This document shows, in pieces, positions 34,105-44,517 of a stretch of DNA of 64,000 nucleotides (positions are counted from its first letter, which is position 1; the number at the start of each line of letters is the position of its first letter). The translations under genes were made by a program, and so were the position numbers. A model generated the notes under the pieces. It searched no databases. It was given only the letters and a program-made list of their open reading frames with translations, and was not told the origin of the DNA. Location: the NCBI RefSeq assembly GCF_055900595.2, contig NZ_CM148325.1; one strand, 5' to 3'.

Positions 34105-35248
34105 GTGACTCTGTTCATAGTTATCGTCGGCGCCGGATACAGCATCTACCCTGCTCAGGGCAGACGCTATGGCTTGTATTTTCCGTCCGCCACTGGTACT
34201 GCCGTAACCCGGCTTGTTCACGTAAAATTTTTGCCGGGTCGCTTGCCCCCTTCGCCGGTTCACTCCCAGCATTCTTCACAGGTGTTACAAAATTTACAAC
34301 ATCAACTGGGATTAATAGCCGGAGGTGAGGCCGGGAAACAGGCAGCAACGGCAGTGGGGCTCCGTTGCAGTGCTGATACTCTTCTTCGCAGGGTTATTAA
34401 TACCCCGGAGACGAAACAGTCGGGCGCGCCTCATGTCGGTATTGATGAGTGGGCGTGGCATCGGGGCCACCATTACGGCACGTTAATCGTCAATCTTGAT
34501 ACTCACCGTCCCCTCGTCCTGCTTCCCGGTTGCGATCAGAGTACGCTGGCGACCTGGTTCAGAAAATATCCGGAAATACAGGTTGTCTCACGTGACCGTG
34601 GCGGAGTCTATGCGACAGCAGCACGTGAAGGTGCACCTCAGGCCAGACAGATAGCTGATCGATGGCACCTGCTAAAAAATATTGGCGATGCGCCTGAACG
34701 AATGATGTACAGACAGATGCCTCTGATACGTCTTGTTGCCAGTGGGTTGTCACCAAAGAAATCACCTAAGCCAGTACTGTCTGTGCCTGTAGCATCGCTC
34801 CGTCGTCCGGAACGCCTTAAACAGCAAACCCGCCAAAAACGGCATCAGCGTTGGACAGAGGTTATGGCACTACATAACAAGGGATGTGGGTTCAGGGGAA
34901 ATATCCCGTATTACAGGCTTATCCCGTATTACAGGCTTATCACGTGTGACAGTCAGTCTCTGGGTGTGTTCAGGAACATTCCCTGAAATGTCAACCCGGC
35001 CTCCAGAGCGAGGACTTCTGGACCCATGGAGGGAGTGGTTAAAAGAGCAACGAGAAAGTGGTAACTTCGGCGCGTGGCTGCAAGGATGGCAGCTGATGCT
35101 GCGGCTATATGTGAGGCAATCAGCAGTCGCTGGAATAATGGGGGGTGTCGAAAGTCATGTAAATTGGCTAAAAATGCTGAAAGGCCAGATGTATGGTCGA
35201 GCCGGATTTGAACTACTCAGGCAGAGGGTCATGAGTCCACTGGCATGA
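34105..35248 (+). pseudogene. ISL3-family-like transposase remnant (frameshifted, lacks N-terminus)
   Basis: GIDEWAWHRGHHYGTLIVNLD...VSRDRGGVYATAAREGAPQARQIADRWHLLKNI fits the ISL3 DDE pattern; reading frame breaks near 34900; IS1 end abuts at 33981. Confidence 0.4.
34903..34938 (+). repeat. Perfect 18-bp tandem duplication (atcccgtattacaggctt x2) inside the ISL3-like remnant
   Basis: Read directly; encodes the duplicated ISRITGLSRITGLSR. Confidence 0.8.
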
Positions 35249-35271
35249 AAATCTCCATCCAGGTTGCGGAA

Positions 35272-35297
35272 GAGCCACTTTTCATCCGTCGTTGACA
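35272..35297. repeat. Solo IS21-type terminal inverted-repeat copy (gagccacttttcatccgtcgttgaca)
   Basis: 22 of 26 nt identical to the IS21 right end at 33549..33574; no adjacent ist genes. Confidence 0.5.
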
Positions 35298-36083
35298 GCT
35301 TGGGGGGTAGTGCATCTGTACCTCTAGGTCAAAGGAGGTATTCATATCCATATTAACGACTTGAATATGTTGACAGTACTGATTCAGATTAACGAAAAAC
35401 GACCGAGCTTCTCTACTACGCACCTCACCTATCCAGAGGATTGATGAGTATCCGCATCGGCTACGACGGTGCGTAACGATGAGCTTTGAACAGGGCAAAC
35501 TCTTTCATGACCCGGCCTTGGCAGTACATCAATCAGACCCTGTGACCTCTATTTGCAACTGACGTTTGTCGATAGTATTGATGATATGCTAGTGCAGGGT
35601 AAGAAATTACGAAATATGTTTAATCGGCAAGATTTTGAGTAACGCCTCAACATGCTCAATGAGTCATGTGGTCTGATGAGCATAAGGCTTTAGCCAGCTG
35701 ATATAATCCCGAACTATGCCGTAGTTAGGGCAAAGAATGCGGTAGACGGGTAGGCGTAACTGAACTGGAAATACCAGTATTGTTCATTACGATAAGGTGC
35801 GAAGTGAAGCATCGTGAACGGCTTTAGCCTGTTTGCCACAAGAGTAATGACCGTTTTCAATCGGTTTTAGGTGGATGATGAGGGGGATTTTACTCAGTAG
35901 GGACGACGTCAAAGCCTATCCAGAGATAAATGGAAAAGATAGTATTCGAAATTGAGAACGGTTGGGGTTGGTTATCGTTCTGTTTTAGCAACTAAACAAT
36001 AACTCCCCAACCGTTATCATTTCCAGCCCACGATAATCTGCAATGAACATTAAAAATTCACGGCGGCGGTCGCTTTCCTTAAT

Positions 36084-37046
36084 TTACGTCTCCTCTTGGG
36101 AGTGGATAATATGGGTGCCTGTTTCGCCACGCAGTGCCGCGGACAGGCATTCAGGCGTGGTGATAATCACTCTTTTACCTCCACGTTCCAGGAACTCCAG
36201 ACTGGCAAGAATCTTCGGTAACATACTCCCAGGCGGGAAGTGACCCTCCTGCATGTAACGGGCCATCGTTAGGACATCCACTGTATCCAGTGCATGCTGG
36301 TTGGGTTTCCCAAAATGAATACTCACTTTTTCCACGCCGGTGGTGATCACCAGAATGTCGGCGTGAATTTCGCGAGCCAGTAGCGCGCTAGAGAGATCTT
36401 TGTCGATAACCGCGTCCACGCTTTGGTAATCCCCTGCGTCAGTACGCACCACCGGAATGCCACCGCCGCCCGCGCCAATCACCACAAAGCCTTGCTGGAT
36501 CAGAGTCTTAATGGCAGGTGCTTCGACAATACGTTTCGGTTCCGGCGAGGCGACCACGCGGCGATAGCCCCGTCCGGCATCTTCAACAAAACGCCAGTCA
36601 GGGTTTGCCTTTTGTAGTTCATCACGCTGGTTTTCACTAAAGAATGCACCGATGGGCTTGGTGGGATGGACAAACCCCGGATCGTTTTTATCCACTTCCA
36701 CCTGAGTCACCACGGTGACGGCTTTTTTCTCGCCGTGAGGCGCCAGCCGGTTGTTCAGCGCCTGCTGGATCAGATAGCCAATGCCGCCTTGCGTATCCGC
36801 CACACAGTTCGCCAGCGGCGTTAAGGGTAGCCCTTCGCGCTCGTGGGCTATCTCCGCGCGGCGTAAATCCAGACCGACCTGCGGCCCGTTGCCGTGGGTC
36901 AGCACAATGTCGTAATCGGAAGCCAGCATTTCCAGAACCGTATCGGCGACGGCCTTCACCGCCTCCGCCTGATGCTCAATCGACTGGCTGGCGTTATCTT
37001 TGATAATGCTGTTGCCACCAATGGCAACGACCACAAGTTCTTTCAT
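36084..37046 (-). CDS. Carbamate kinase-like protein (ArcC/YahI/YqeA family)
   Basis: MKELVVVAIGGNSI...THGNGPQVG amino-acid kinase fold. Confidence 0.85.
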   Translation of the reverse strand: MKELVVVAIGGNSIIKDNASQSIEHQAEAVKAVADTVLEMLASDYDIVLTHGNGPQVGLDLRRAEIAHEREGLPLTPLANCVADTQGGIGYLIQQALNNRLAPHGEKKAVTVVTQVEVDKNDPGFVHPTKPIGAFFSENQRDELQKANPDWRFVEDAGRGYRRVVASPEPKRIVEAPAIKTLIQQGFVVIGAGGGGIPVVRTDAGDYQSVDAVIDKDLSSALLAREIHADILVITTGVEKVSIHFGKPNQHALDTVDVLTMARYMQEGHFPPGSMLPKILASLEFLERGGKRVIITTPECLSAALRGETGTHIIHSQEET

Positions 37047-37072
37047 AGAATTATCTTCCGTTTGCAGGCTAT

Positions 37073-38623
37073 TCAGGTCGTTTTAGTCTCTTCCTGCTCA
37101 GACGCAGCCACTGTTTCACGGCTATCAATAACATGCTTGAGGGCAAACATAGCAAGCATCATCAGGTAGGCCACAACAAACACAATCGAGCTGCCTTCCG
37201 CAAAGCCAACCGCTGGGGAGTGAATCACGCCAAACAGCGATAACAGTGCTCCAAAGGATGCAGCTATCGCCCCGCGCAGCGGCTTATTCATAATGGCAAA
37301 GATAGCAATGCATCCCCACAGCATGCTGGCCAGCGGTGCACCGCTTCCCAGATGCATCAGTCCATCGTAATAGACGCCTTTGCTGTGCAACAGGTCGCTA
37401 CCAAGTTTCTCAGCGGATGTTCCGGCTGCGCCCATCACGCTGTTAACGATGGTCAATGCCCAGTTGGCGACCCATGGGAACAGACAGATGAAAATGACGG
37501 GAACCTCGACTTTAGGAGTTTCTCGCACCACCTGATTGGCGGTTACCACACCGATAAAAACCAGAATTGGCACTATAGCAGTCATGGGAATAATGGCGAG
37601 CATAAACGCGCCCAACCCAAACAATGGCACCAGAAACATAGTGATGCCTGATGCGAGGGTATAGCAGATACTAGCGCCCATAGCTTTCCAGCCTGCATGC
37701 CCAACATATACGGTTACCGGGAACGGATTACCCAGCATGCAACCGAGCATGGAGGCAAAGCCGTTCGCCATCATGACCTTACGGGTGTTGTATTCATCAC
37801 CAGCCGCGTGCGCACTTTCAATGTTCTCGAGGTCAAAAATGTAGTTAGCCAGGCCCAAAGGAACTGCAGAAGCCAGATATGGCAGAGCGTGCGGCAAACC
37901 TTGCAGGAAGCTCCTTACATGAATTTCCGGCGGGTTGAAGCCGAAGGAAGACATCGACGCTTTAATGTCTTCCGGGCTTTGTAAACCGGATATCCACGCT
38001 AGGGACGTACCAGCAATCAGCAACAGCAAACCGGTAGGAATATGGGGAAAAATCGGCTTCTTACCGAACCAGTTAATGAAGATCAATAACAGGACGATGA
38101 AAGAAACTGTCGGCGCTTCGAACGCTTGCAGCATCGGGTTCATTGCCAGCAGTAATAACCCCAGTCCGGACAGACAAGAAAGCAGCACTGTACGCGGGAT
38201 CATCTTGCGGATAGTCTCACCCAGGAAGGAGCCACCGACCAGGATCAACGCTTCGACAAAGCACCACACCAATCCTATCTGAATAGCAAAGTTGGCATCT
38301 TTGGTTTGCTGATAAACCGGCATCAGCACCAGGAATGTCACGGTAAAGATTGAGGGTGCGCTCGGTCCAGACGGCAGCGCCGTTACATCGCTACGACCGG
38401 TTTTCTTCACCATCTGTAGACCAAACCAGGAGTAGCAGACACTGGCCGCCAGCACTGCAAGACCAAAGGCAGGCGCAATGCGTCCATAGACAATTTCAGT
38501 AGGGATTCCGACGACAAAAATTAGCAGACCCATCATTGTCAGCAGGTTAGTCAGATTGTTGGTCATCAGTCCAAAGTAAGCCGCCCAGTCACCACGTTTC
38601 CATTCTAGTTTTATGCTGTTCAT
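37073..38623 (-). CDS. Polytopic membrane transporter, possibly an NCS2/AzgA-like nucleobase-type permease
   Basis: 516 aa with about 12 predicted TM segments between the DUF1116 and carbamate kinase genes; family call is tentative. Confidence 0.6.
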   Translation of the reverse strand: MNSIKLEWKRGDWAAYFGLMTNNLTNLLTMMGLLIFVVGIPTEIVYGRIAPAFGLAVLAASVCYSWFGLQMVKKTGRSDVTALPSGPSAPSIFTVTFLVLMPVYQQTKDANFAIQIGLVWCFVEALILVGGSFLGETIRKMIPRTVLLSCLSGLGLLLLAMNPMLQAFEAPTVSFIVLLLIFINWFGKKPIFPHIPTGLLLLIAGTSLAWISGLQSPEDIKASMSSFGFNPPEIHVRSFLQGLPHALPYLASAVPLGLANYIFDLENIESAHAAGDEYNTRKVMMANGFASMLGCMLGNPFPVTVYVGHAGWKAMGASICYTLASGITMFLVPLFGLGAFMLAIIPMTAIVPILVFIGVVTANQVVRETPKVEVPVIFICLFPWVANWALTIVNSVMGAAGTSAEKLGSDLLHSKGVYYDGLMHLGSGAPLASMLWGCIAIFAIMNKPLRGAIAASFGALLSLFGVIHSPAVGFAEGSSIVFVVAYLMMLAMFALKHVIDSRETVAASEQEETKTT

Positions 38624-38735
38624 GGAATCTCCTTAACAGGTTAAGCATCGTTTGCGATCATGGAGATCGCCCAGCCCTGAAGGTAAACAACGTTTTCCGC
38701 TACTGTGGGGCTAACTGCGTTAGCCCCGGTTATTG

Positions 38736-40154
38736 TTATTGGCAGTAGTGGTCACGCCAGTTGAGGATCGCCTTTTCAAAACAAGTGAACGGCGGGTGAA
38801 CAATTCCTGCGCCGATCATGCCGATCCCTGCGTCTTTGTGCGCAATGGCTGTGTTAATTACCGGCAGAATGCCTGTACTGCCTACACGCGTAATATCGAT
38901 AGCGGTCGGTACGCCCATAAAACCAAGCAGGGGAATGGTGACGTTGGGGTTTTCTCCGAGAGTGATTTCTCTCATTTTACGTGAGAAATCAATAGCTTCC
39001 TCAACTGTTCCGCCCACCAGTGACACAATAGCTGGTGCCGTCGCCATAGCGAAACCGCCAACGCCGTAGGTTTCGGTAATTGCACTATCACCGATATCAC
39101 GTCCGGAATCCTCTAGCTTATAGCCCGCAAACATCGGCCCAATCACCTGCTGCGCCGGACCGGTAAACCACTTGCCCGGCAAACCGCTAATACGAAGACC
39201 GAACTCAACACCATTGCGTGCCATCGTTGTCACCACGGTGCTGTATTCAATGCCGTGCGCAGCGTCCATTGCGGCTTTACACATTGCCATCCATGTTGGT
39301 CCTGAGAAGTAATCACTACTGAGGACAAACTCGAACACCTCACGCTGCTGCTCAACAGGGTAGCCAGTCTGAATAATCCACGGCGTCAGCGTCTGAATCA
39401 GCAGCGCCGTCCCGGCGTTGTTGCGGTTATGGCACTCATCGCCCATATGCAGCGCCTGCGCTAACATCAAGTGCAGATCGATTTCGCCCGCCAGCTTCAT
39501 AGCATCGCGCAACATAGGTCCCAGTACATCTCGCATCCAGTTAAGACGCTCTATAACGCTCTGGTCGTTAGCGCCCATACGCAGGATCTTTGCCATCTGC
39601 TCGCTCATATTGGTATATGCGCGGTTTCCATAGGTTTTGTTCTCGACGATGTGCATAAACATCGATGCAGACGTGACACCCGCCATTGAGCCGACACAGT
39701 CATGTTCGTGGCACGGAGAGAAGATGATTTCACCTGAAGCAGCTAGTTCGGCGGCATCATCCAGATCTTTCGCCAGTCCTTCAAATACCAGAGCCCCGGT
39801 TACTGCGCCCTTCATTGCGCCGCACATTTTTTCCCAGTGGATTGGCGGCCCGGCGTGAAGGATAGTGTTACGGGTCATACCCGGCACGACGTTGATCGCC
39901 TGATCATAGCCAATTAGCACAGGATGCGACTGGATAATGCGTTCCAGCGCCAGCTGATTAGCAGCTGCAATTTTGTCTGCCAGTGGTGAAGCGGCAATGT
40001 CGTCCAGTGCCGTTACCACTTGTATGTTTCCTTGGCCTGGCGGTGTCCAGTCAAGTTGGGTTACCGGTACATTCTGCTTTTTCATGTCATCGCTGAACAT
40101 TTCGATACCGACATTAATAACGTTCAGCGGCTGATTAAACAGTGTCTGGCTCAT
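38736..40154 (-). CDS. DUF1116-family protein (YlbE/YahG-like)
   Basis: 472 aa; start overlaps the FdrA-like stop (ATGA), indicating an operon. Confidence 0.65.
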   Translation of the reverse strand: MSQTLFNQPLNVINVGIEMFSDDMKKQNVPVTQLDWTPPGQGNIQVVTALDDIAASPLADKIAAANQLALERIIQSHPVLIGYDQAINVVPGMTRNTILHAGPPIHWEKMCGAMKGAVTGALVFEGLAKDLDDAAELAASGEIIFSPCHEHDCVGSMAGVTSASMFMHIVENKTYGNRAYTNMSEQMAKILRMGANDQSVIERLNWMRDVLGPMLRDAMKLAGEIDLHLMLAQALHMGDECHNRNNAGTALLIQTLTPWIIQTGYPVEQQREVFEFVLSSDYFSGPTWMAMCKAAMDAAHGIEYSTVVTTMARNGVEFGLRISGLPGKWFTGPAQQVIGPMFAGYKLEDSGRDIGDSAITETYGVGGFAMATAPAIVSLVGGTVEEAIDFSRKMREITLGENPNVTIPLLGFMGVPTAIDITRVGSTGILPVINTAIAHKDAGIGMIGAGIVHPPFTCFEKAILNWRDHYCQ

Positions 40155-41701
40155 CAGCCTTCCTCCCCTTTAAATATAAATTCACGTGCCAGTAATCCGG
40201 TGTTGGTGCTACTGCTTGCCCAAATAACCCCGGCATCGGTCAACATCTGACACTGTTTTTTCAGCGACGGTGTATCAAGGTCGGTTCCCAGCACATAGCC
40301 GAGGATCTCAAGCGGGCGACCGTCTGCGGCAGCAATTTCTTTGGCTTCAACAATTGTATCCAGCATCACTCCAACCGGATCTTCATGTGATCCAAATCCA
40401 AGAATGAAGTCCATCACGATCACGCCAACTTCAGGATCCTGTGCTTCCTGCAAGAGCCGGGTAATGCGATTGGTGGGATCGATCATCGGATGTGGTTTGC
40501 CGTTGGTAAAATAATCATCGCCGAAATCGAGGAAGGTATGCGCCACGCTACGGTTGAGATCTGTAAGGCGGAACGCCGGATTCGGGTGAATATTGCTATA
40601 CACATCCGAGAGTTTTTCCATGGCAGTAAACATCGCTTCATCGCATAACGTGCCACCACAGAACAGGCCACGGATATACTTTTGTTGTGGAGTCAGACGG
40701 GAGCGAACCTCTTCAATCAGCTGCCAGTTGAGCGGATGCAAATCCAGACTCTCTTTTTTCACACCAGTCAACAGTACCGCTTTCAAGGCAGCCTCTTTAG
40801 TACCGCGGGCAAACTGTAGGCCTTCTTCATCCGCAGGGGTGGACTCACGTCCGAGGAAACACACCACCACAGGCTTGTGACAGGTGCGCGCACGTTCCAG
40901 CACCTTACGGGCTACCGCTGGTGCAGGAGGTTTGGATATAAGCGTAATGATCTCAGTTTGTGGATCGGCCTCCAGCATGCTAATCGCGTCAAGCATCATC
41001 AGGCCGCCAATTTTTTCACTCATATCGCGTCCACCTGTCCCAATCAGCTGGGAAATCCCGCCGCCAAATTCGTGAATGCGTACGCTCAGCTCCTGGCTAC
41101 CCGTACCGGAGGCACCAATGATTCCGATGTTGCCGCGACGCACTGCATTGCCAAAACACAACGCTGCGCCGTTAATGATGGCGGTTCCACAATCAGGCCC
41201 CATCATCAACAACCCTTTTTCATGTGCCAGATGCTTGAGTTCCAGCTCGTCCTCAAGAGAGACGTTGTCAGAAAACAGCATAACATTGAGGTTATTTTGT
41301 AGTGCCTGACGAGCTTCACGAGCAGCAAACAGGCCATTGACAGAGATCACCGCCAGATTACTCTCTGGAGCATGCTTCTTCGCACTGGCAATCGTGGCAT
41401 AGCGTGCTTCGTGCTGGCCTCCCTGTTCTTTATGCGCAAACAGCTCATCAATCGCTATTAGCGTCCGCTCGTTCGCCTCCTCGCTGGTACCTTTAATGAC
41501 AATCATCAGATCGCCACTTTTCGCCTCTTCCAGCTCAGGGGTCAGCAGACCGAGATTCTTCAGCACCCCCTTATTCATCTCTGTCGCCATAGCAACAAAT
41601 GCCTGCTCAACTCCATCAAGCTTATTTGCGCGCGTGGAGATAGACATCAGTGAAACAGAATCAAAATACGTGTTTTTTTTTACAACTATCCTGATTGACA
41701 T
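40154..41701 (-). CDS. FdrA-family protein (CoA-ligase/succinyl-CoA-synthetase-like fold)
   Basis: 515 aa; GIIGASGTG nucleotide-binding loop. Confidence 0.75.
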   Translation of the reverse strand: MSIRIVVKKNTYFDSVSLMSISTRANKLDGVEQAFVAMATEMNKGVLKNLGLLTPELEEAKSGDLMIVIKGTSEEANERTLIAIDELFAHKEQGGQHEARYATIASAKKHAPESNLAVISVNGLFAAREARQALQNNLNVMLFSDNVSLEDELELKHLAHEKGLLMMGPDCGTAIINGAALCFGNAVRRGNIGIIGASGTGSQELSVRIHEFGGGISQLIGTGGRDMSEKIGGLMMLDAISMLEADPQTEIITLISKPPAPAVARKVLERARTCHKPVVVCFLGRESTPADEEGLQFARGTKEAALKAVLLTGVKKESLDLHPLNWQLIEEVRSRLTPQQKYIRGLFCGGTLCDEAMFTAMEKLSDVYSNIHPNPAFRLTDLNRSVAHTFLDFGDDYFTNGKPHPMIDPTNRITRLLQEAQDPEVGVIVMDFILGFGSHEDPVGVMLDTIVEAKEIAAADGRPLEILGYVLGTDLDTPSLKKQCQMLTDAGVIWASSSTNTGLLAREFIFKGEEG

Positions 41702-42509
41702 AATTACCTCCGGACCTGTGGCTCAGGGCGCAGGCATCCGCCATGCCATACAGCATGTCGCATCCAGAACTTGAGCCTATATTTTTTATGTCAGTAACAT
41801 ATTGCGTAGAAATGGGTTGTGGCTCAGTAATAAATTGGTTCAGTAGCCGTCCGACTCTTTCCCGATAACGCTGATTAAATGCTTCCTCTAAAGTTATTTT
41901 GCTGAGAAGCGTTATGTTATTTCCTGCAAGTTGTAATGCTGCTAAGAAATCGTATCTATACTTCCTTAGTGGATGTCCTTGAATAAATAAAATAGTGCTT
42001 AAACCTACTAAATAATCATCCGATGATGGCGTCAGCCCTATTCCAAGACCAATTAACTGGTTGACTGCCGCAGTGATGTTTTCTCCTGTACACAACGCCT
42101 TCAGCAAATTTTTTCGGCGGTTGAGTAATTGGCGAGAAATTTCCTGATAAAATGGATTGTCACCCTGGTACAGAAATAATGTGTCGTTGCTTCTTAGTTG
42201 TTGGCGGATAAACTCTTCCCAATGCTGCCAGCCGACTTTGGCAAGGCTTGCTGAATCAGATGTCCACCGTGGTATTCGCCACATCTGACAACCGGTTATT
42301 TCTATCCATTTATCATTTCCAACAGTTATTCCAGACCCGCTAAAATTGACCTGTTCACCGGGGTGAAAAAGGTCTTCATAATGTGTCAGTGCTAAACGAC
42401 AACTGTTAGGTGCGTTATCACAATCCTCACTCAGTAACGTCAGCAGTCGCTGCTGTTCAGGTATTAACAGATTTACCGCATGGGAAAAAACCTGTTCAAC
42501 CTGGCCCAT
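41661..42509 (-). CDS. DUF2877-family protein (YlbF/YahE-like)
   Basis: 282-aa ORF upstream of and overlapping the FdrA-like gene. Confidence 0.55.
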   Translation of the reverse strand: MGQVEQVFSHAVNLLIPEQQRLLTLLSEDCDNAPNSCRLALTHYEDLFHPGEQVNFSGSGITVGNDKWIEITGCQMWRIPRWTSDSASLAKVGWQHWEEFIRQQLRSNDTLFLYQGDNPFYQEISRQLLNRRKNLLKALCTGENITAAVNQLIGLGIGLTPSSDDYLVGLSTILFIQGHPLRKYRYDFLAALQLAGNNITLLSKITLEEAFNQRYRERVGRLLNQFITEPQPISTQYVTDIKNIGSSSGCDMLYGMADACALSHRSGGNYVNQDSCKKKHVF

Positions 42510-42594
42510 TCCCCGAAAAGTGAGAAACGCGCAGTCTGCGGTTAGTGCCCGAAAAGATTGCCGTGATAATATAGCGATAATCGTGCTCCTGTTG

Positions 42595-43200
42595 TCAGGC
42601 TCCAGCCGAAATCAGCAACTCGGCAATTTTGTGGTAGCCTTTTTCTCGCGCCAGCTCCAGCGGGGTTTTACCGTATTTATCCGTCATGTGCGGGTTTGCG
42701 CCATGCTCAAGCAACAGTTTGACGATCTCCTGCTGCTTTTCACCGCCGTCATTCAGCACGATGGCCTCTAGGAGCGGCGTCCAGCCAACAAAATTAGTAT
42801 GGTTGACATTGATATCAGTACGCATCAGCAATTCACGTACAATCTCGACATGGCCTTTTTCGCAGGCAGGTGTAATACCAACACCGCCAAAACGGGTTAG
42901 GCAATTAAGGTCGGGGTTAGCCGGTAATACCGTACGCAACAGTGTTAAATCATTATTCAGGCAGCCAATCAGGAAGGGATTAAAACAAGTTTGATCTTGT
43001 TTATTAATATCAGCACCTGCGGAAATCAATAAAGAAACGCAGTCATAATGTTTATTCAGACTGGCAATAATAATTGCAGTACGCCCCTCGCGGTTAGTCG
43101 CATTAATATCAACCTTTTTATCAAGGCATGATTTTAATCCATCGGAATTACCTTGTTCTGCCGCCAGCAGAAATTCTGTAATGAGTTCTTTATTGGACAT
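42595..43200 (-). CDS. Ankyrin-repeat protein (YahD-like)
   Basis: 201 aa with tandem ankyrin repeats (GRTAIIIASLNKHYDCVSLLISAGADIN; GWTPLLEAIVLN...LLLEHGANPH; GKTPLELAREKGYHKIAELLISAGA). Confidence 0.8.
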   Translation of the reverse strand: MSNKELITEFLLAAEQGNSDGLKSCLDKKVDINATNREGRTAIIIASLNKHYDCVSLLISAGADINKQDQTCFNPFLIGCLNNDLTLLRTVLPANPDLNCLTRFGGVGITPACEKGHVEIVRELLMRTDINVNHTNFVGWTPLLEAIVLNDGGEKQQEIVKLLLEHGANPHMTDKYGKTPLELAREKGYHKIAELLISAGA

Positions 43201-43587
43201 AATCGATCTCCTGCTCTTTTTAAGATTTTACAAATATAACAAGCCAAGAATAGCAACAGAATGCATAGAGCACCATCCATTTAAAATTTACTCATCATTA
43301 GACCATGAATTATTGAAAAAAAATTAACAATAATAAGAGAGTGTGATATAGTGCAATATTTCTATTATAGCTGGGGATATTTTAGCCATTAATCCGCAGT
43401 CATATAAATAAAGGTGGTCTGCAGCACGGATAGCTGCCTGTAATTAAAATTCAGATGTGTGATTTCCTTCAAATTAAATGTAAATACGGTGTTAATTTTT
43501 TCAAAACTGATTGTCGGTTATAAGAATTACAAATACATTCAACAATCATCATGTTGTGTATGTGTATTATCGCCAGAGGAAAGAAAG

Positions 43588-44517
43588 ATGAATTCAATAT
43601 TTACGGAAGAAAACTTACTGGCATTTACTATGGCTGCCCGCTATAGAAGTTTCAGCAAGGCGGCGAAGGAACTGGGCTTAACCACATCGGCAATTAGTTA
43701 CACTATCAAGCGTATGGAAATGGGGCTTGACGTGGTGCTTTTTACCCGAACTACCCGTAGCATTGAGCTGACCGAGCCCGGGCACTACTTTTTTTGCAAA
43801 GCAACTGACCTGCTCAACGATTACCACTCCATCATACGTAGAGTTGATGCCATCGCTCAGGGAATTAAATCCCGGGTGCGCATTTGTATTAATCAACTGT
43901 TGTATACCCCTCAGCATACAGCTCGGCTTCTGCAAGTGCTCAGGGAACACTTTCCAACCTGCCAGATAGCTATTACTACAGAGGTGTATAATGGCGTCTG
44001 GGATTCACTCATTAATAACCAGGCTGATATCGCCATTGGCGCGCCCGATACGTTACTGGACGGTGGTGGAATTGATTACATTGAAATCGGCATGATTCGT
44101 TGGTTGTTCGCGATTTCTCCGGCTCATCCGCTGGCGTTTATTCCTGAGCCCATTTCTGAGAGTCAGTTACGTCTGTACCCGAACATCATGGTGGAAGACA
44201 CTGCAAACACTATTAACAAAAAAGTCGGCTGGCTGTTACACGGGCAAGAGTCGATTCTGGTTCCCGACTTTAATACTAAGCTTCAGTGCCAGATCCTGGG
44301 GGAGGGAATCGGTTTTCTGCCAGACTATATGGTGCGTGAAGCGATGGAAAAGTCATTGCTGGTGACACGGCAGATCCACAACCCACGTCAGGATTCACGA
44401 ATGCTGTTGGCAACCAGGCATTCGGCAAGCGGTCAAGTCACTCAGTGGATAAAAAGAGAATTTAGCTTACAAGGAATACTGACGGGGATTTATCAGGATT
44501 TGATGCATCGAGCGTGA
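43588..44517 (+). CDS. LysR-family transcriptional regulator, divergent from the carbamate-kinase operon
   Basis: N-terminal HTH LLAFTMAARYRSFSKAAKELGLTTSAISYTIKRME; ATG at 43588 chosen over the track ORF start. Confidence 0.85.
   Translation: MNSIFTEENLLAFTMAARYRSFSKAAKELGLTTSAISYTIKRMEMGLDVVLFTRTTRSIELTEPGHYFFCKATDLLNDYHSIIRRVDAIAQGIKSRVRICINQLLYTPQHTARLLQVLREHFPTCQIAITTEVYNGVWDSLINNQADIAIGAPDTLLDGGGIDYIEIGMIRWLFAISPAHPLAFIPEPISESQLRLYPNIMVEDTANTINKKVGWLLHGQESILVPDFNTKLQCQILGEGIGFLPDYMVREAMEKSLLVTRQIHNPRQDSRMLLATRHSASGQVTQWIKREFSLQGILTGIYQDLMHRA

Follow-up and report, generated by a model that had tools for sequence, protein, structure and literature searches.

A 64,000-nucleotide stretch of contig NZ_CM148325.1 (RefSeq assembly GCF_055900595.2), referred to here as the window, carries six genes on its minus strand, encoding an ankyrin-repeat protein, homologues of AllH, AllF and AllG, a polytopic permease and a carbamate kinase, together with a divergent gene for a LysR-type regulator. 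The locus raises the question of what a permease is doing amongst genes that appear to belong to a carbamoyl-transfer pathway. A first-pass annotation of the window took it to be an added extra, which would make the locus a self-contained module for uptake and catabolism. Comparison with related loci gives a different answer. The locus is a second, foreign copy of the enterobacterial yah operon, horizontally acquired and cut at its 3' end, in which the permease has been kept. In kind it is an AllFGHK-like catabolic transcarbamoylase operon that is mobile and has been truncated, and it reveals the complete make-up of the yah operon as well as a linked clade of unannotated transporters. The yah genes form a dense uncharacterised cluster within the E. 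coli y-ome, and AllFGH, their only characterised relative, was identified in 2024.

A yah-type operon related to AllFGHK

The seven reading frames are present and intact in the window where the first-pass annotation had placed them, and the gene order and families that it gave hold good, with family models matched. The AllF (FdrA) homologue passes the curated FdrA model of NCBIfam (NF004760, score 489.9 against a cut-off of 433) and matches both PDB entry 3DMY (FdrA; E-value 1e-83) and succinyl-CoA synthetase alpha subunits. The AllG homologue matches Pfam AllG (PF06545, E-value 1e-89) and the AllH homologue matches Pfam AllH (PF11392, E-value 2e-22), so that the proposed similarity to the FdrA, YlbE and YlbF families is significant in each case. 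The AllG and AllH genes adjoin the AllF gene, with overlaps: the AllF stop and AllG start codons share one base (TGATG) and the AllH gene overlaps the start of AllF by 41 nt. The kinase scores 629 against a cut-off of 266 with the carbamate kinase subfamily model NF009007 and falls short of the arcC equivalog TIGR00746 (345.6 against 358.25); we assign it to the carbamate kinase family and not as an ArcC equivalog. The ankyrin protein matches ankyrin-repeat models.

The window proteins are collinear orthologues of the products of yahB, D, E, F, G and I of E. coli K-12 and reproduce the order of the yah operon. The identities are 93% for YahI, 90% for YahG, 85% for YahB, 83% for YahF, 72% for YahD and 53% for YahE. 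K-12 has in addition yahC and an intact yahJ, both of which are missing from the window. The first-pass annotation had drawn a parallel with the yahD–yahI cluster and with fdrA-ylbE-ylbF-ybcF, and the parallel is sound. The latter genes are now named allFGHK; AllFGH has been shown experimentally to be an oxamic transcarbamylase and AllK is a catabolic carbamate kinase (PMC11326118, PMC9843812).

The relationship to the allantoin-pathway proteins is more distant, with identities of 38% to AllF, 46% to AllG, 38% to AllK and 39% to AllS, and the window AllH can be aligned with its K-12 namesake over an 18-residue motif only. By these values the system in the window is a yah-type paralogue of AllFGHK. 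The two have four protein families, an AllS-type LysR regulator and tightly coupled genes in common and, by analogy, both would turn a ureide and inorganic phosphate into carbamoyl phosphate and then ATP. They differ in gene order (F-G-H-K in the all system, H-F-G-permease-K in the window), and the yah type adds the ankyrin protein, an in-operon permease and, in intact loci, a hydrolase with a signal for twin-arginine translocation (Tat). As for the regulator, it scores highest in NCBIfam with the AllS and PunR models but reaches the cut-off of neither (AllS NF007501, 265.5 against 372), and the protein is best described as a LysR-family orthologue of YahB rather than an AllS equivalog.

A further difference concerns the boundary between the F and G subunits. 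Residues 12–53 of the YahG-like protein (window 39996-40121) align to the C-terminal 40 residues of K-12 AllF (locus L087, 17217-17342); a segment carried by the F subunit in the all system is carried by the G subunit in yah. The F/G gene boundary has moved between the two systems, and the two placements support the view that F and G are physically associated.

The ankyrin protein also varies. In Bosea (Alphaproteobacteria) and in Paenibacillus variants the 201-residue protein is replaced by an ankyrin–TPR fusion of 410–453 residues (locus L088, 11685-12917; locus L089, 11603-12964). We note separately that, between K-12 and Citrobacter, identity is no more than 71% for YahD and 55% for YahE, against 86–93% for YahB, F, G, I and J (locus L086, 10367-11875); in the E. 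coli locus without a permease, yahD and yahE have thus evolved apart at an unusual rate.

The permease is a standard component of yah-type loci

A scan of one genome per species gave 159 relatives of the permease, and the best 80 of the 159 were examined together with loci found by other routes. The permease gene adjoins AllF, AllG or carbamate kinase genes in all 87 loci examined, amongst which are loci from Firmicutes and Betaproteobacteria. When every open reading frame of these 87 loci was clustered, the only families conserved around the permease were AllG (86 loci), carbamate kinase (85), AllF (84), the ankyrin protein (76), YahJ (73), LysR (72) and AllH (51, subject to the clustering threshold). 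The usual enterobacterial order is a LysR gene divergent from ankyrin-AllH-AllF-AllG-permease-carbamate kinase-YahJ, and the module, permease included, recurs in Janthinobacterium, Brevibacillus, Bosea, Paenibacillus and Pasteurella. Permease homologues 65–95% identical to that of the window are spread across Proteobacteria and Firmicutes. In Brevibacillus the module has a PucR regulator in place of LysR and includes an NCS1 (cytosine/purine-type) transporter and a 152-residue CDA-fold deaminase (locus L002, 7025-9964).

The association loosens with distance. Two more distant relatives lie in clusters of a PucR regulator, AllH, AllF and AllG genes, with or without carbamate kinase, where a hydrolase of the isochorismatase family, to which BiuH, RutB and TrtA belong, replaces YahJ (locus L093, 9568-10242; locus L094, 7835-8497). 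The most distant, below about 330 bits, are found in other contexts, next to genes for an MtmB-like methyltransferase and corrinoid proteins (locus L102, 6566-9557; locus L103, 5856-9521). The linkage therefore holds for the closer clade and not for the whole superfamily, and the wider permease family serves other pathways.

Native E. coli is the exception. K-12-type loci have either yahH or nothing between yahG and yahI. The small open reading frame that the first-pass annotation placed at this position in K-12 is indeed there, as yahH; what has been annotated under that name is a 3.9-copy tandem array of a 93-bp unit (96% matches) of the repetitive extragenic palindrome/bacterial interspersed mosaic element (REP/BIME) type, sitting in the permease slot (locus L086, 7040-7399; PMC11551758). 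Some E. coli are without the array, and the span of the native locus varies by about 330 bp. Neither tblastn nor blastn found a remnant of the permease in the K-12 yahG–yahI spacer, which holds the REP/BIME repeat only.

The permease thus belongs as standard to the yah-type loci of all the other genera that were examined, and it is missing from native E. coli. The first-pass annotation had weighed the case that it is standard in all yah-type loci, K-12 included, as one that would count against its view of the permease; this case holds for the other genera and fails for K-12. Since the permease stands beside the enzyme genes elsewhere and has left no trace in native E. coli, it is apparently ancestral to yah-type operons and was lost there, rather than being added in the window copy, and the idea of an added extra has to be given up.

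The absence of a cognate transporter from K-12 may help to explain why the yah genes lack a known function, and screens carried out in K-12 may have found nothing. Citrobacter, Enterobacter, Providencia and other genera, in which the complete eight-gene unit is found, would be better experimental hosts.

Family and fold of the permease

Assignment of the permease to a family by hidden Markov models had been suggested as a check on the first-pass annotation. The profile scan matched no Pfam or NCBIfam family, and the placement comes from the fold alone. Neither the permease nor 21 of its relatives gave a Pfam match even at E ≤ 10, no NCBIfam model was matched by the permease and a search of its profile against PDB sequences returned nothing meaningful. 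The protein is commonly a 'hypothetical protein' in RefSeq; in some sources it is called a xanthine permease or placed in the AGZA family.

The AlphaFold2 model (predicted local distance difference test score of 78) has short strands in transmembrane helices (TM) 3 and 10. Foldseek matched it about equally well to SVCT1, SLC26Dg, prestin, BicA, UraA, UapA and AZG1/2, with a probability of 1.00, E-values from 1.5e-6 to 1e-4, 400–510 aligned columns, TM-scores of 0.45–0.5 and identities of 10–16%; no subfamily was preferred. The predicted fold and the TM3 and TM10 strands are those of the NCS2/NAT (UraA, UapA, SVCT1), AzgA (AZG1/2, GhxQ) and SulP/SLC26 (SLC26Dg, BicA, prestin) families, although the low identity and TM-score and the lack of a sequence-family match set the permease apart from them. 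The model therefore places it as a 7+7 inverted-repeat transporter of the UraA/SLC26/AzgA superfamily, outside the annotated families. It brings to light a transporter family that is without a Pfam or NCBIfam model and is tied to a defined metabolic context.

The names given to the permease in some sources suggest an ordinary xanthine or nucleobase permease, functionally unrelated to its neighbours. Its profile bears a weak likeness to that of the AzgA-family protein GhxQ (hhalign E-value 0.0055, over 104 columns of TM8–11), to which a faint resemblance to the AzgA family at TM10 can be added (PVTVYVGHAG against PAAVYIESAAG). The hhalign probability of the GhxQ match is just 6.6%, however, the comparison with XanQ gave an E-value of 0.05 and that with YbbY gave nothing, and the xanthine/uracil permease family of NCS2 (Pfam PF00860, Xan_ur_permease) was not matched at E ≤ 10 by the permease or the same 21 relatives. 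The Pfam and hhalign tests do not support the xanthine label. Since the family tests failed and the genomic linkage to the enzyme genes is strict across phyla, we regard a nucleobase permease unrelated to its surroundings as highly improbable.

Loss of yahJ and truncation of the locus

In 68 related loci of Enterobacterales and Aeromonas the kinase gene is followed directly by yahJ. YahJ is an amidohydrolase whose closest relatives are AtzC and cytosine deaminase. Its N-terminus (MKESNSRREFLSQ) contains a twin-arginine motif, SRREFL or GRREFL, that is present in 67–68 of the 68 orthologues. The signal peptide has reportedly been validated by experiment for Tat export. A tblastn search found no yahJ in the window. 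Reading of the sequence after the kinase stop codon shows that the gene has been deleted apart from 11 codons. YahJ is a predicted Tat substrate in the literature also (PMC7549933).

Collinearity with Citrobacter loci spans 36050-44545. Homology breaks off at 36050, which is 34 nt beyond the stop codon of the kinase gene, and transposase fragments and an ISL3 pseudogene come next. This agrees with the earlier view that DNA associated with insertion sequences (IS) truncates the locus immediately after the kinase. Because the conserved last gene, yahJ, is deleted, the window module is not self-contained, contrary to what had been proposed. Overall, the observation that prompted this work is confirmed and its interpretation is supported in part.

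Distribution and origin

Of 5,426 complete E. coli genomes, 141 carry the permease gene, in every case with at least 99% identity. It occupies 150 places, 105 on plasmids, apparently ColV-type for the most part, and 45 on chromosomes, and 69 of the 70 matching plasmids in a plasmid collection are conjugative. Many of the source strains are from poultry, and p1ColV5155, a ColV plasmid, is one of the carriers sampled; in avian and extraintestinal E. coli this metabolic module is thus found on plasmids of the ColV type. About 4,970 records have only the native permease-less yah locus, at about 82% (80–90%) nucleotide identity to the window copy.

The nearest relatives are Citrobacter loci, with protein identities of 90–96% for most genes, nucleotide identity of about 85% and synonymous divergence (dS) of 0.5–1.0. 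This divergence points to an unsampled relative, rather than a known Citrobacter species, as the donor. Ratios of nonsynonymous to synonymous substitution (dN/dS) against Citrobacter are 0.03–0.19 for the seven genes, which shows strong purifying selection on all of them, with 0.056 for the permease and 0.19 for AllH, the fastest-evolving gene of the module.

Is the window copy then functional? Seven E. coli copies were inspected; five, including that of the window, are intact, two are disrupted and none has yahJ. In strain MDR_56 an IS50R element lies in AllH, and in p1ColV5155 there is a frameshift in fdrA, the AllH gene is partial and the LysR gene is split by IS3. The locus might then be decaying and redundant with native yah, a truncated piece that IS elements have brought along as a hitch-hiker on ColV plasmids and islands. 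The cut-off yahJ, the flanking IS debris and the two disrupted copies are what would be expected of such a fragment, and the at least 99% identity amongst all 146 matching E. coli records points to a single recent acquisition. On the other hand, the seven reading frames have been kept in five of the seven copies, the conserved boxes of the regulatory region are retained and, of all the components, native E. coli lacks the permease alone. The missing YahJ could be supplied by the native locus, present in the roughly 4,970 records mentioned above, with yahJ annotated under several of the matches. We consider a non-functional passenger possible but rather doubtful.

A proposed pathway and its alternatives

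We consider it probable that the window carries a horizontally acquired, IS-flanked copy of the conserved yah operon (yahB divergent from yahD-E-F-G-permease-yahI-yahJ) that has lost yahJ and that operates by carbamoyl transfer. The reaction itself has a precedent in E. coli AllFGH, for which the phosphate-dependent conversion of oxalurate into oxamate together with carbamoyl phosphate is known (PMC11326118); for the window proteins, which are 38–46% identical to AllF, AllG and AllK, we infer an AllFGH-type reaction from their family membership. The LysR regulator would switch on the operon. In intact operons the AtzC- and cytosine deaminase-like YahJ, exported to the periplasm by Tat, most likely makes the transported compound outside the cytoplasm. 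The permease would carry the substrate, probably an oxalurate-like N-acyl-ureide, across the inner membrane. The AllFGH-type complex of the YahE-, YahF- and YahG-like proteins, to which the ankyrin protein probably contributes as accessory or scaffold, would move the carbamoyl group to phosphate. The YahI-like kinase would then use carbamoyl phosphate and ADP to give ATP, NH3 and CO2. For the window copy the YahJ step would come from the native yahJ of the host, or be unneeded. In return, the window copy would provide the transporter missing from native yah.

Several points weigh against this proposal. The yah cluster is listed as uncharacterised, as part of the E. coli y-ome (PMC11551758), and our literature search did not find a functional study of yah or of the permease. 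The low identity to AllF, AllG and AllK, with AllH barely alignable, means that the chemistry could differ. An AllH gene is absent between the ankyrin and AllF genes in 20 related loci, from Enterobacter, Leclercia, Lelliottia, Silvania, Huaxiibacter and Aeromonas cavernicola, in which AllF follows the ankyrin gene after about 60–100 bp (for example locus L040, 6228-8574); this is awkward for an obligatory three-subunit enzyme and suggests that AllH is dispensable or is encoded elsewhere in those genomes. The fold of the permease does not separate an importer from an exporter or antiporter. Finally, with yahJ missing, and with genes disrupted in two of the seven sampled copies, the particular copy in the window may not be functional.

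One alternative is a second oxalurate system, in which an AllFGH–AllK isozyme and an oxalurate permease would allow the cell to draw ATP and nitrogen from oxalurate in its surroundings (formed, for instance, by oxidation of parabanate or urate), in the way that Streptococcus and Enterococcus are described to do. The protein families are the same as those of AllFGHK, AllS is the regulator model most closely resembled and the Firmicute versions have PucR-type regulators of purine catabolism. An oxamate transcarbamylase inducible by oxalurate or parabanate, with a dedicated carbamate kinase, has been reported from streptococci in older work cited in PMC6022934, and SLC26-type relatives of the permease fold carry oxalate-like anions. 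Set against this are the identity to AllF, AllG and AllK of only 38–46%, the fact that E. coli keeps both systems and the presence of the conserved YahJ, or elsewhere of a CDA-type deaminase or an isochorismatase-family hydrolase, none of which is needed for oxalurate. The protein of PDB entry 3CLQ, a solved structure entered as an uncharacterized protein and about 72% identical to the window AllG, was followed as a lead to the substrate. It probably comes from Enterococcus faecalis, a classical oxalurate fermenter. Its locus consists of genes for a PucR regulator, AllH, AllF, AllG and a 393-residue protein, with neither a permease nor a carbamate kinase gene adjoining. The lead was therefore dropped, and the locus argues against the oxalurate system, which we think unlikely.

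The direction of transport admits another alternative. The permease could be a substrate/product antiporter, or an exporter of an oxamate-like end product, in the manner of ArcD or AguD. The architecture of a hydrolase, a transcarbamoylase, a carbamate kinase and one transporter is that of the deiminase pathways, a second transporter of the NCS1 type adjoins the permease in Brevibacillus loci and the cluster has no conserved gene for metabolising the product further once its carbamoyl group is gone. Many 7+7 inverted-repeat transporters are symporters, however, and with a periplasmic YahJ the simplest reading is an importer of the YahJ product. Export or exchange seems to us improbable, and in the proposed pathway the permease is retained as an importer.

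Intact yah operons resemble the arginine (arcABCD) and agmatine deiminase pathways in having four parts: a C–N hydrolase, which could give rise to the ureide, a transcarbamoylase acting in catabolism, a carbamate kinase and a single transporter dedicated to the pathway (PMC6022934), although the hydrolase, transcarbamoylase and transporter come from unrelated families and the yah hydrolase is predicted to be periplasmic. All four parts are found in intact relatives; the window has three, the hydrolase gene being the one deleted. This leads to a more speculative suggestion, in our view doubtful, that yah is a further deiminase-type fermentative pathway. The Tat-exported enzyme would turn an external amino- or guanidino-substituted compound, perhaps from the oxidation of urate or purines, into an N-acyl-ureide, the new branch of the UraA fold would import it and the ankyrin-assisted AllFGH-type enzyme and carbamate kinase would make ATP. 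K-12 would be cryptic since the REP/BIME array replaced its transporter gene, and in avian and extraintestinal E. coli the ColV plasmids and the islands would restore the transporter and use native YahJ in trans.

An accessory cluster with its own hydrolase and transporter is already known from extraintestinal pathogenic E. coli, the tkt1 island or GR29 cluster, which contains an isochorismatase, yahE-, yahF- and yahG-like genes, a carbamate kinase and an NCS1 permease (PMC3349570, PMC12928451). It resembles the window locus in being an accessory AllFGH-type and carbamate kinase cluster. It differs in its metE–ysgA location, CodB-like NCS1 permease, RutB-like hydrolase and lack of an ankyrin protein, and it is about 46% identical to YahG. 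We rule it out as the same system; it is a separate AllFGH-type cluster.

Gene layout, regulatory region and surroundings

The features of the locus are listed in Table 1. Annotation of identical loci and the alignment with YahB indicate that the true start of the LysR gene is most likely the ATG at 43588.

Table 1. Coordinates of the yah-type locus and adjoining features in the window.
Feature	Position	Strand	Remarks
IS debris at truncation: frameshifted ISL3 transposase gene (~34027-35249) and transposase fragment (~35304-35511)	34027-35511		Transferred from the annotation of 99.9%-identical loci
yahJ remnant	36051-36080	-	K-E-S-D-R-R-R-E-F-L of twin-arginine signal peptide; start codon now ATT
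Carbamate kinase, YahI-like	36084-37046	-	320 aa
Permease, polytopic	37073-38623	-	516 aa; AAGGAG Shine-Dalgarno directly 5' of ATG
Hairpin, 10-bp stem, GC-rich	38706-38728	-	Between AllG stop and permease ribosome-binding site; transcribed strand without a following T-run
AllG/DUF1116, YahG-like	38736-40154	-	472 aa
AllF/FdrA, YahF-like	40154-41701	-	515 aa
AllH/DUF2877, YahE-like	41661-42509	-	282 aa
Ankyrin-repeat protein, YahD-like	42595-43200	-	201 aa; first gene of the operon
Divergent regulatory region	43201-43587		Conserved palindrome, related box, conserved blocks
LysR-type regulator, YahB-like	43588-44517	+	309 aa from ATG at 43588; open reading frame listed as 43459-44517

Neither a riboswitch nor any other RNA family was found when 35000-45500 was scanned against Rfam by E-value, and the counts of promoter-like hexamers and terminators were no higher than in shuffled sequence. 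Conservation within the regulatory region was judged from an alignment of ten genera in which the yahC–yahD spacer of K-12 was included. A conserved palindrome of the ATTGTTAAT-N5-TTCAATAAT type lies at 43309-43331, with the consensus ATTGTTGAAT-N3-ATTCAACAAT, and is common to the window and K-12. There is a related box at 43526-43546, and further conserved blocks are found at 43247-43256 and 43274-43288. The palindrome, upstream of the operon, appears to be operator-like.

The surroundings of the module are mosaic. To its left (window 14000-36000) is a patchwork of IS66, IS21, ISL3, IS2 and IS1 elements together with a gene for a YadA-like adhesin. To its right (44500-61000) the island carries genes for an S6-family peptidase of the serine protease autotransporter (SPATE) type, an AbgT transporter, a ROK regulator and an ABC transporter.

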